From UHGV virus genome UHGV-0261880: DNA of 44,278 bases, one strand, 5' to 3'. Every line of letters starts with the position of its first letter. Position 1 is the first letter of the stretch. Shown here piece by piece: positions 6,959 to 29,274 of this stretch. Position numbers and translations under genes: made by a program. The notes under the pieces are model-generated. The model did not search any database. It saw only the letters and a list, made by a program, of their open reading frames with translations, and was not told where the DNA came from. Origin of the DNA: a virus.

Positions 6959-6987
6959 TTGCACACCCCAATATAATAGGGTACTAT
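6959..6987 (+). promoter_or_regulatory. Sigma70-like promoter TTGCAC-N17-TACTAT with embedded palindrome AATAG-ggta-CTATT
   Basis: TTGCACaccccaatataatagggTACTATtca about 30 nt upstream of the 7016 start; near-identical copies at 16871 (+), 29274 (-), 28141 (-). Confidence 0.5.
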
Positions 6988-16870: not shown

Positions 16871-16899
16871 TTGCACACACCGATATAATAGGGTACTAT
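16871..16899 (+). promoter_or_regulatory. Sigma70-like promoter TTGCAC-N17-TACTAT with embedded palindrome
   Basis: TTGCACacaccgatataatagggTACTATtca, 30 of 32 nt identical to the 6959 element; ~30 nt upstream of the 16932 GTG start. Confidence 0.5.
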
Positions 16900-25881: not shown

Positions 25882-26322
25882 TTATCCTAATAGTTGTTTG
25901 GTAATAATCTTGCCACCGGTGTTAACGTCGAACTTCGATGCAACGGCTACGCCACCATGTGCCGAATACCCGCATTCCATAGCCGCTAACGCATATGGCG
26001 AGCCAGACCCCACGGCGGCAAAGCTATCGGCAACTGGAATAACAGAACTTAGTGCACAATCCCATGATTTATAAAACGCGACTTTATACACCTTTTCTGT
26101 GTCTTTCACGAACACCAGGGCTTCGAAATCGAAGTCATAGTGCTTAGGCACTAAAATTCCTCTGTCCCCAACGAGAATATCCCCGACTCCCGCGTCACCG
26201 GCCACACCGATAACGGCAAAGTCATTCTCGTATATCTTTGTGTCTGTGTTGTAGCAGTTACTTCCGCACACAACACGGGTATCACAAGCCATTGTCTTTC
26301 CGTCGAACGCGATAGTAGTCAT
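25882..26322 (-). CDS. HslV/proteasome beta-subunit-like N-terminal nucleophile hydrolase
   Basis: 146 aa; begins MTTIAFDG (Thr right after Met, as in HslV); Lys ~28 residues in; AVGSGSPYALAAM matches HslV GSGGPYA block. Confidence 0.65.
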   Translation of the reverse strand: MTTIAFDGKTMACDTRVVCGSNCYNTDTKIYENDFAVIGVAGDAGVGDILVGDRGILVPKHYDFDFEALVFVKDTEKVYKVAFYKSWDCALSSVIPVADSFAAVGSGSPYALAAMECGYSAHGGVAVASKFDVNTGGKIITKQLLG

Positions 26323-26612: not shown

Positions 26613-26803
26613 ATACCGAGAATCTCGCAGGCCATTTCTTCGGTAACTTTCGAACAAGGTGAGTACAGTACCTGGGCGGCGAAGTTACACAGTTTTCGCT
26701 CCAGCTCCGCGTAATCTTCGTACTCTACGTAACCACCTTCATCACACGGCTCCATCTCTCCACCATTGCAATGGTATAGTTCTAATTCATATCTCTGTAC
26801 CAT
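26609..26803 (-). CDS. Hypothetical small acidic Cys-containing protein
   Basis: Track ORF trimmed to internal ATG (MVQRYELELYHCNGGEMEPCDEGG...) overlapping upstream stop. Confidence 0.4.
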   Translation of the reverse strand: MVQRYELELYHCNGGEMEPCDEGGYVEYEDYAELERKLCNFAAQVLYSPCSKVTEEMACEILGI

Positions 26804-27075
26804 CACTCCACCCCTTCTACATGTGTAACTGACCCACAGTTCGCGCACTCGACGTAATCCGGGAACTGGTCTTTGTATTTCTGTAACTCAGCGTTTACTT
26901 CTGCCAATCTTGCCACAAGCCCCTCTATTTCCATGTCTGTAGTTGTTATGTAGTCCTGGAAACTGTCGTCCAGTTCCTTGTAGTCTTCATACCGAACCAC
27001 CTCCACCCAATCCTCGTAGAAGGCGTCGCCCCCTAATTCAGTACCTCGTGCTTCATATTTCCGAACCATAATCAC
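26803..27075 (-). CDS. Hypothetical protein with C-terminal CxxC
   Basis: 90 aa coupled ORF. Confidence 0.45.
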   Translation of the reverse strand: MIMVRKYEARGTELGGDAFYEDWVEVVRYEDYKELDDSFQDYITTTDMEIEGLVARLAEVNAELQKYKDQFPDYVECANCGSVTHVEGVE

Positions 27076-27290
27076 TTCTCCTGTTTACCGAGTCGCTTAG
27101 GTGAGCAGATAGCGCGTACCTCTGAATCGTTGGGCTTGTCGCCCTGAAACAGGAAGTGCGCGTTCTCTGCGGCGCGTGCTGCAGACTGGCACGCCTCCAT
27201 CGAATAAAACGTTTCTGCTGCCGCGAGTTGCATCTGGCCTGCGGACAGTACCCAGATAAATAAGATGCTGGTCATTTCTTTAACCCGCAT
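27072..27290 (-). CDS. Small secreted protein (signal peptide)
   Basis: 72 aa; N-terminus MTSILFIWVLSAGQMQLAAAE signal-peptide-like. Confidence 0.45.
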   Translation of the reverse strand: MRVKEMTSILFIWVLSAGQMQLAAAETFYSMEACQSAARAAENAHFLFQGDKPNDSEVRAICSPKRLGKQEK

Positions 27291-27685
27291 TTAAGGCACA
27301 TACATGGAAACCCTACTCCGTAAAATTGCCATTCGTGCTCGCATTCTTCAGGTTTAGCCACACCACATTTACGGCAATACGGGGTCCCAAGTCTATTCCC
27401 AAAAACTACCACACATCGCCACTCATGCTCGCATTCCTGGGTATCGTCCTTACGGCACCCGGATTGCTCAGGCACGTACCCACCTTTGCGTATAAGTTTG
27501 TACGCCTCCACGTCACCAGCAGCGGTAGCCAATGCCATATGTAACTCCTTAATCTGCGCTGACGCATCACGTAACTGATTCTTAAGTGACTGCACCTCGT
27601 GCGCCAGGTCTTCGCACTGGTTGTTATTTACCTGCTGCCGTAGCTGTTCAATCAGGTACTCGAATACTTCGTTTTTGTTACTCAT
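27272..27685 (-). CDS. Cys-rich protein with duplicated ECEHEW...C..C motif (zinc-ribbon-like) and N-terminal coiled coil
   Basis: 137 aa; ...TQECEHEWRCVVVFGNRLGTPYCRKCGVAKPEECEHEWQFYGVGFPCMCLKCG. Confidence 0.5.
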   Translation of the reverse strand: MSNKNEVFEYLIEQLRQQVNNNQCEDLAHEVQSLKNQLRDASAQIKELHMALATAAGDVEAYKLIRKGGYVPEQSGCRKDDTQECEHEWRCVVVFGNRLGTPYCRKCGVAKPEECEHEWQFYGVGFPCMCLKCGLKK

Positions 27686-27870
27686 AATACGTCTCCTACT
27701 AACCCAACCTTCATGATGCCGCGTTCACCTTTCTTGCCGGCGCGAAGCCACTCACGCGCAACTTTCTCATCAGTGAACACGAATTTCGGTACGTGCTTTC
27801 CGTCAGGGGCGATAACCCATGACGACCATACCGGGGTAACTTTAATCAAATGCTCGTTTTTGTTACTCAT
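27682..27870 (-). CDS. Hypothetical protein
   Basis: Track ORF trimmed to internal ATG MSNKNEHLIK...; shares first 17 nt with the 27685 gene. Confidence 0.4.
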   Translation of the reverse strand: MSNKNEHLIKVTPVWSSWVIAPDGKHVPKFVFTDEKVAREWLRAGKKGERGIMKVGLVGDVL

Positions 27871-28081
27871 CTTCTGGCTCCTCCCCGTTATATTCTTCGA
27901 ACACAAAGTCGTCGTCCGCAGATAGCGCCCACCAACCATACCCGGTGTAATAGACGTCAAGTTCAGTGCCGTTGTCGTCTATTATGTAGCATCGGCTCTC
28001 GTCGCCGTCTTCTTTGAGGTGGTACAAGTCATTTTTAGTCAGCGCCCAATAACCATCGTAGGATTTGCATTCCAGGAACAT
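27863..28081 (-). CDS. Hypothetical acidic protein
   Basis: 72 aa; first gene after the 28141 promoter. Confidence 0.4.
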   Translation of the reverse strand: MFLECKSYDGYWALTKNDLYHLKEDGDESRCYIIDDNGTELDVYYTGYGWWALSADDDFVFEEYNGEEPEDE

Positions 28082-28112: not shown

Positions 28113-28141
28113 ATAGTAGCCTATTCTATCTTAGTGTGCAA
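28113..28141 (-). promoter_or_regulatory. Sigma70-like promoter TTGCAC-N17-TACTAT with embedded palindrome (minus strand)
   Basis: Minus-strand reading TTGCACactaagatagaataggcTACTATtca; same family as 6959/16871/29274. Confidence 0.45.
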
Positions 28142-28218: not shown

Positions 28219-28255
28219 AAAATGAGAAAAATGATACGCTGCTGTGTAGCAGCGT
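28219..28255 (-). terminator. Hairpin ACGCTGCT-GTGT-AGCAGCGT followed by T-rich tract (minus strand)
   Basis: 8-bp stem; plus-strand AAAAATGAGAAAAATGAT upstream gives U-rich tract for minus transcripts. Confidence 0.45.
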
Positions 28256-28289
28256 AAGACACAAAGCCAAATAATAACCTATTGACCTG

Positions 28290-28478
28290 TTACACCGGCG
28301 CCGGTAGCTCAGGTAAGGGCATCCAGTGGGAGATATCACCGTGGTATAAACTCTTCGCTGGCCCCCAGTAGCCATCTGAATTAACACGCATAACCTCACA
28401 ACCGACAAAACCATCAGTTACAAGAACGTATTCATAAGGCTCCGGCATCTGCTCACTACACTTAATCCACTCACCCAT
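28290..28478 (-). CDS. Hypothetical protein (DUF551-like pattern)
   Basis: 62 aa; W/P-rich pattern ...HWMPLPELP. Confidence 0.4.
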   Translation of the reverse strand: MGEWIKCSEQMPEPYEYVLVTDGFVGCEVMRVNSDGYWGPAKSLYHGDISHWMPLPELPAPV

Positions 28479-29245: not shown

Positions 29246-29274
29246 ATAGTATCCTATTATATTGGGGTGTGCAA
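29246..29274 (-). promoter_or_regulatory. Sigma70-like promoter TTGCAC-N17-TACTAT with embedded palindrome (minus strand), leftward early promoter
   Basis: Minus-strand reading TTGCACaccccaatataataggaTACTATtca, 31 of 32 nt identical to the 6959 plus-strand copy. Confidence 0.5.

Follow-up and report, generated by a model that had tools for sequence, protein, structure and literature searches.

A short open reading frame in the viral genome UHGV-0261880 (44,278 nucleotides, analysed over its full length and hereafter called the window) raises the question of what a small phage protein could be doing with two Cys-rich motifs carried behind a helical N-terminus. The initial annotation, made from the sequence, described a coiled-coil-like region followed by two near-identical copies of one motif, and read them as a tandem zinc-ribbon pair of an unrecognised type. 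The window belongs to a Kagunavirus-like (Guernseyvirinae) siphophage of E. coli, its top nucleotide matches being Escherichia phages SZH-1, CR01 and their relatives (approximately 88-91%, with patchy coverage). The reading frame (27272..27685, minus strand, ATG start, stop codon included) encodes 137 aa and contains both motifs exactly as annotated, TQECEHEWRCV...CRKCG at residues 82-108 and PEECEHEWQFYG...CLKCG at residues 112-134. The ORF list, the translation and the homologues all indicate a complete gene, and a GGAG ribosome-binding site can be read from the sequence 7 nt 5' of the ATG (27693..27696, minus strand). No Pfam or NCBIfam model matched the protein above noise, in agreement with the annotation that the type was not a recognised one, and the family to which it belongs is phrog_6094 (E=2.8e-56, 190 bits, residues 1-119 against profile positions 1-118 of 142), a sequence cluster of PHROGs v4 with unassigned function. 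The literature searched contained neither a mention of phrog_6094 nor a description of a population-level cassette organisation, such as the one reported below, for a protein of this type.

The gene lies within a long array of small genes, most of them unannotated, which runs leftward, diverges from a helicase-primase/replication block and is located upstream of an HslV-like peptidase, holins and an endolysin. It comes third behind a terminator-like hairpin (28235..28256, minus strand, read from 28256 to 28235) and, just downstream of this hairpin, a promoter-like motif TTGCAC-N17-TACTAT (28113..28141, minus strand) which heads its transcription unit. This motif, contained in a 51-nt repeat, occurs four times in exact form in the window, where chance would give 0.17 occurrences, and the promoter-like region at 28113-28141 is 88-98% conserved among related loci. 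The four copies (6959-6987 and 16871-16899 on the plus strand, 28113-28141 and 29246-29274 on the minus strand) have similar spacers and are all upstream of a gene start, two of them being preceded by terminator-like hairpins (28256-28235 and 29367-29347). On these sequence features they probably represent a family of phage promoters. No terminator-like site was found between the gene and the lysis genes, and the early timing given in the initial annotation is an assumption. The peptidase gene downstream in the same array (25882-26322, minus strand) encodes an HslV/proteasome-beta-like product which gave weak NCBIfam matches only, and its relatives are annotated as 'peptidase HslV family'.

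Translational coupling is present on both sides of the gene through ATGA overlaps. Upstream, the TGA of a 62-aa gene (MSNKNEHLIK..., 27682..27870, minus strand) overlaps the ATG of the gene under study, and downstream its own TGA overlaps the ATG of a 67-aa gene (MTSILFIWVLSAGQMQLAAAE..., 27072..27275, minus strand), whose product is signal-peptide-like and has two Cys. The upstream gene has its first 17 nt in common with the gene under study (ATGAGTAACAAAAACGA, MSNKNE), is bracketed by a 29-nt repeat covering ribosome-binding site and start (27669-27697 and 27854-27882), and was directly upstream in just 2 of 41 related loci; it looks like an insertion through recombination at the common start sequence.

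The N-terminal part of the protein (residues 1-68, 27482..27685, minus strand) is a conserved helical stalk with heptad repeats. AlphaFold places helices at residues 4-21, 24-56 and 59-68, and hydrophobic residues follow a clean 3-4 spacing (L27, V31, L34, L38, A41, I45, L48 and L52), which supports the coiled-coil-like N-terminus of the initial annotation. Pfam returned only sub-threshold coiled-coil noise on the stalk; matches to HisK-N-like, TPR and Phage_scaffold models, all below their cut-offs, were rejected as compositional. A weak match to the T7 gp5.9 RecBCD inhibitor (E about 0.8), obtained in the PDB search with the whole-protein profile and located in the helical region, was set aside. 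The stalk is followed by a hinge (residues 69-84, 27434..27481, minus strand) which includes EQSGCRKDDTQE with Cys77 and is predicted to be disordered, pLDDT falling below 50 at residues 68-82. The hinge is acidic, with the consensus EQSGCRK[ED]DTQE and an almost invariant Cys. In a 50-sequence alignment, Q74 is invariant and E73, S75, G76, C77, R78, K79 and D81 are at least 90% conserved, a level also reached by C24 in the stalk. Since synonymous sites vary, the hinge (EQSGCRKEDTQEC) is constrained as protein and not as DNA, and its interpretation as a DNA-level recombination site was rejected for the same reason. A lipoprotein reading of 'QSGC' was likewise discarded from inspection of the sequence, as there is no signal peptide and a Q at position -3 does not fit. 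The product is small, soluble and probably cytoplasmic.

Behind the hinge, alignments and a motif scan delineated two modules: module 1 at residues 85-108 (CEHEWRCVVVFGNRLGTPYCRKCG, 27362..27433, minus strand), with the putative ligands C85/H87/C104/C107, and module 2 at residues 115-134 (CEHEWQFYGVGFPCMCLKCG, 27284..27343, minus strand), with the putative ligands C115/H117/C130/C133. A scan of the window for C-x-H-x-[WFY]...C-x2-C, covering ORF segments of 40 aa or more in all six frames, found the pattern in these two places and nowhere else. The likeness of the two modules exceeds chance: aligned globally with BLOSUM62 they score 66, against -5.3 +/- 8.7 for shuffled sequences, none of 2000 reaching 66. 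The internal duplication described by the initial annotation therefore stands as a repeat, but not as a near-identical one: the modules are two distinct cassette types, with identity confined to E-C-E-H-E-W and C-x-K-C-G, loops of different sequence between the His and the next ligand Cys (16 residues in module 1, 12 in module 2), and a single intragenic DNA repeat of 22 nt with 86% identity, detected by a repeat search at 27415..27436 in module 1 and at 27325..27346 in module 2, where it encodes ECEHEW.

The motif is conserved in related phages. H87, C104, C107, G108, C115, H117, C130 and C133 are invariant in the 50-sequence alignment and C85 is at least 90% conserved, while the two other Cys of this part, C91 and C128, are not conserved. 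Across 37 divergent modules, only the C, H, C and C are invariant; a G is conserved at 90% or more, an aromatic residue (W, F or Y) is found two positions past the His in most of them, and loop lengths range from 11 to 22 residues. This C/H/C/C set of putative ligands suggests zinc binding.

Structure prediction, proposed in the initial annotation as a check, gave helices for the stalk and short beta-strands adjoining each knuckle of the modules, but the models are of low confidence (pLDDT 65 in the run on the whole protein, 60 in that on the C-terminal 61 aa alone, hence 60-65 for these strands) and led to no fold assignment. Foldseek against the PDB found nothing below E=1, the best E-values being 1.4 and 3.1, although the weak matches above this value were all zinc ribbons. 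A sequence search of the PDB with the whole-protein profile gave nothing significant. The module profile matched only CxxCG knuckles of zinc ribbons (uS14/eS29, eS27, Elf1, Rpb12, L32 and L40e), by partial matches with a best E-value of 0.0095. The annotated tandem zinc-ribbon pair thus has indirect support, from the invariant C/H/C/C set with its variable loops, from the predicted strands flanking the knuckles and from the knuckle matches in the PDB.

A search of about 5.8 billion proteins retrieved 1315 homologues, and tblastn found the family in 247 phage records, all of Escherichia, Salmonella or related Guernseyvirinae phages of Kagunavirus or Jerseyvirus type. The number of modules varies among 161 unique homologues: two are present in 114 of them, one in 32, three in eight and four in one, the remaining six having none. 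Homologues with a single module, or with three or four, indicate that the modules are autonomous and not halves of one cross-braced domain. They fall into at least 15 types, of which the window protein carries type 2 (CEHEWRCVVVFGNRLGTPYCRKC) followed by type 0 (CEHEWQFYGVGFPCMCLKC). Both types recur independently in other phages, type 0 nearly always in terminal position. A crude motif parse, which over-counts, gave 110 different module orders among 179 sequences; at this resolution it implies dozens of real architectures. Optional inserts are found in both halves of homologues, among them a W-rich domain of about 55 aa, GQRYVVGEH...NCRC, WPYxFYY, a C-x-C...C-x2-C module and several coiled-coil segments.

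The type-1 module, C-x-HNWRFVNGKAPAVC-x-NCG, present for example in P0008-P0120 and in the loci L003, L006, L010 and L036, is otherwise nearly invariant and has a single hypervariable position, the one separating its first Cys from the His, where H, Y, F, N, R, D, S, P, L and C all occur (entropy of 2.4 bits over 97 instances). This variability at the tip of the knuckle may reflect diversifying selection.

The C-terminal 66 aa, compared by phmmer with 1.84 billion representative proteins, yielded 22 clusters at E<=1e-3, almost all of this family. A tandem-module profile detected C-x-H-x-W...C-x-K-C-G pairs in a few unrelated small proteins (P0188, P0210, P0223, P0224 and P0232, E from 3e-6 to 5e-3), which have different and often helical N-termini; the one whose context was looked up, P0210, sits in an array of small genes on the same strand. 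The metagenomic protein P0128 is a direct fusion of a DUF551 domain with a type-2 CHCC module, so this module moves between otherwise unrelated small phage proteins. The window has a DUF551 gene of its own (28290-28478, minus strand, E=3e-13). Repeats of PEECEHEWRDATCTSPMTCTKCG in P0136, a metagenomic surface-type protein of 2327 aa with a signal peptide, match the knuckles of the modules (E=2.6e-5), which could be a convergence or point to a wider class of mini-domains.

The two ends of the gene have contrasted patterns of conservation. In the 32 loci that have every part, pairwise identity has a median of 83% for the first 18 residues, 23% for the region after the hinge and 97% for the downstream 67-aa protein, whose gene bounds the variable region as a conserved flank on the 3' side. 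In nucleotide comparisons, similarity of related loci to the window extends over about the first 145-210 nt of the gene, is then lost or patchy, and returns at 85-97% directly past the stop codon. Such a similarity, stopping at the hinge and resuming past the stop, argues for replacement by recombination and against gradual divergence. Among 42 loci, no two combined near-identical flanks with different cassettes, the pattern expected from a recent swap. The window itself contains no silent cassettes, no other C-x-H...C-x2-C segments and no template repeat of a diversity-generating retroelement (DGR), and the variation thus lies between genomes; with the 22-nt intragenic repeat as the only one in the gene, within-genome diversification by shufflon or invertase cassettes or by a DGR was ruled out for the window.

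Neighbouring small genes are also mosaic, and the exchange of cassettes may be part of a general turnover of the accessory region instead of an arms race specific to this gene. The downstream 67-aa gene is found in 475 phage records, against 247 for the family, and in some phages a homologue is fused in frame to the C-terminus of its product (locus L028; phiSD1, under the name 'tolA-binding protein'). In the window, a 90-aa ORF at 26803-27075 (minus strand) ends in ...YVECANCGSVTHVEGVE, a tail which also terminates the family member of locus L035 (...VCDNCGSVTHVEGVE); fragments of the cassette pool are therefore also present in, or fused to, neighbouring genes.

What, then, could be the role of a protein with a constant stalk and such a replaceable end? 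A host-takeover or anti-defence role appears plausible. The reading we favour, with a probability of roughly 40%, is that an oligomeric stalk presents interchangeable zinc-stabilised heads to host targets which vary between strains, antiviral defence proteins being the most plausible of these. The heptad repeats would most likely oligomerise, providing a multivalent scaffold, and each Cys-x-His...Cys-x2-Cys mini-domain would most likely bind one zinc ion in a zinc-ribbon-like pair of knuckles round a beta-hairpin. The loops stabilised in this way could serve as interchangeable binding heads for host factors differing from strain to strain, and recombination would exchange the cassettes, with the conserved 5' half of the gene on one side and the conserved gene downstream on the other. 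The argument for a strain-variable target, in preference to conserved host machinery or DNA sites of the phage, is that the putative binding half is replaced wholesale among phages infecting the same species, while stalk, hinge and neighbour are constant. Kagunavirus isolates are unequally sensitive to Old and to the immunity conferred by K-12 cryptic prophages (PMC11990801). Those of the BASEL collection are highly sensitive to restriction-modification systems (PMC11990801), which argues that the protein is not a general anti-restriction factor.

The alternative that fares best, although we consider it unlikely, is a nucleic-acid-binding regulator, whose dimeric stalk would set the zinc modules on DNA or mRNA and which would control phage gene expression as do Ogr/Delta, zinc-finger activators of late genes, or Com, an activator of translation. 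The modules are indeed mildly basic (median net charge +2 and pI 8.6, with a pI of 8.9 for module 1), they have a weak structural and sequence likeness to zinc ribbons of ribosomal proteins and transcription factors, and JGI names one homologue, P0109, a 'predicted nucleic acid-binding Zn-ribbon protein', a name without a supporting domain match. The whole protein is however near neutral or acidic (pI 6.1, family median 6.7), and no HMM match to Ogr_Delta, Com or a DNA-binding family was obtained at E<=10. Moreover, conserved targets on the phage should not allow the cassettes to be replaced or lost, yet the promoter-like region is as strongly conserved among related loci as reported above.

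The same reasoning bears on a second alternative, a host-takeover factor directed against conserved machinery, either the secondary channel of RNA polymerase, as with DksA/TraR, or the divisome. In outline, the combination of a coiled coil and a C-terminal zinc module recalls DksA/TraR and COG1579/HP0958, the gene belongs to an operon of small genes behind a host-type promoter-like motif, and two GenBank records carry the label 'cell division protein' under or next to a homologue. This label is given without a stated basis and probably originates from a resemblance between coiled coils. Neither zf-dskA_traR nor zf-RING_7 gave an HMM match at E<=10, the ligand pattern is C-x-H...C-x2-C rather than C4, and a conserved target predicts a conserved inhibitor, but the half expected to bind is hypervariable; we regard this alternative as quite improbable. 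Least probable is that the Cys/His motifs hold no metal or that the protein has no selected function, being an accessory ORF scrambled by recombination between conserved neighbours: the low AlphaFold confidence, and the members which lack modules or are fused to downstream genes (L028 and L035), would fit with it, but the four ligand positions are invariant over at least 15 module types whose loops are otherwise unalignable, the hinge is kept as protein despite synonymous change, essentially every Escherichia-phage record with the downstream gene has this gene too, and it is translationally coupled on both sides.

The reading of a stalk with exchangeable heads can be carried further, to a speculative form which we consider doubtful as a whole: a cassette system operating at the level of the phage population, in which each CHCC head on the constant stalk and hinge would neutralise or evade a different strain-specific immunity protein, the repertoire, the copy number and the residues at the knuckle tips being under diversifying selection. 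The hypervariable x of C-x-H in the CxHNWRFVNGKAPAVC module is the example of such a tip. If this were true, the protein would represent a new structural class of anti-defence proteins, modular and multi-specific, and a wider class would be hinted at by the tandem CxHxW...CxKCG modules in small phage proteins unrelated to it.

Should phages indeed exchange these modules as zinc-stabilised recognition heads, the family would provide a compact natural example of combinatorial evolution at the level of domains in an accessory protein of phages. It would also give a tractable entry point to what Kagunavirus and Jerseyvirus phages, both in use for biocontrol and therapy, target in the host. The isolates of Kagunavirus in the BASEL collection, with their varying sensitivity to cryptic-prophage immunity and Old, constitute a ready experimental system. 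If no phenotype is associated with it, the protein would be one more uncharacterised small zinc protein of a mosaic accessory region.

Several known systems can be compared with the phage protein. The existing cluster phrog_6094 covers the same Guernseyvirinae phages, but a single profile misses the modular organisation in cassettes. DksA/TraR (PF01258) and proteins of the COG1579/HP0958 type (PF02591) are alike in being small proteins with a coiled coil and a C-terminal zinc module. They differ in having a single conserved C4 finger built of C-x2-C knuckles, C-x2-C-x17-C-x2-C after a coiled-coil hairpin in PF01258 and a C4 ribbon after a long coiled coil in zf-RING_7 (PF02591), whereas the phage protein has the pattern C-x-H-x16/12-C-x2-C and its family zero to four CHCC modules of many types. 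Ogr/Delta of P2/P4 (PF04606) are small phage zinc proteins as well, and the copy number of their zinc module varies within the family, the Delta protein of P4 being a tandem duplication of it. Their ligand pattern, C-x2-C-x22-C-x4-C, is different from that of the phage modules, they have no coiled-coil stalk, and a diversity of cassettes is not reported for them.

The DnaG-type zf-CHC2 domain (PF01807) has its ligands in the same order, Cys, His, Cys and Cys; it belongs to replication enzymes and its first knuckle is C-x2-H (C-x2-H-x17-C-x2-C), while the phage modules have C-x-H and are part of a small stand-alone protein without a Pfam match to zf-CHC2. The C2H2 zinc finger (C-x2-4-C-x12-H-x3-5-H, beta-beta-alpha) was rejected, as the only match was to zf-C2H2_11 over 10 residues (E=5.3) and its ligand order is not that of the phage modules (C, H, C, C). 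A functional precedent for anti-defence is offered by Enki, a 52-aa predicted zinc-ribbon protein from Vibrio phage 1.080.O, an inhibitor of AbiH and of a retron (bioRxiv 10.1101/2024.06.14.598830). It is similar in being a very small phage protein with a predicted zinc ribbon and differs by its single module, its other virus group and the lack of a stalk.

Another parallel is the generic zinc ribbon of the TFIIB N-terminus, Rpb12, eS27, uS14 and L32, with two zinc knuckles round a beta-hairpin. The phage modules likewise have four conserved putative ligands in two short knuckles, separated by a variable loop which may form a beta-hairpin, and their second knuckle, x-C-[KR]-x-C-G, matches those of solved zinc ribbons. 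The phage modules differ by a first knuckle formed of C-x-His and an aromatic residue instead of C-x2-C, by their shuffled arrays on a coiled-coil stalk, and by having no significant full-length match in sequence or fold. The phage protein would be described as an uncharacterised variation on the zinc-ribbon theme, in which the first knuckle is C-x-His and the modules stand in arrays on a coiled-coil stalk.
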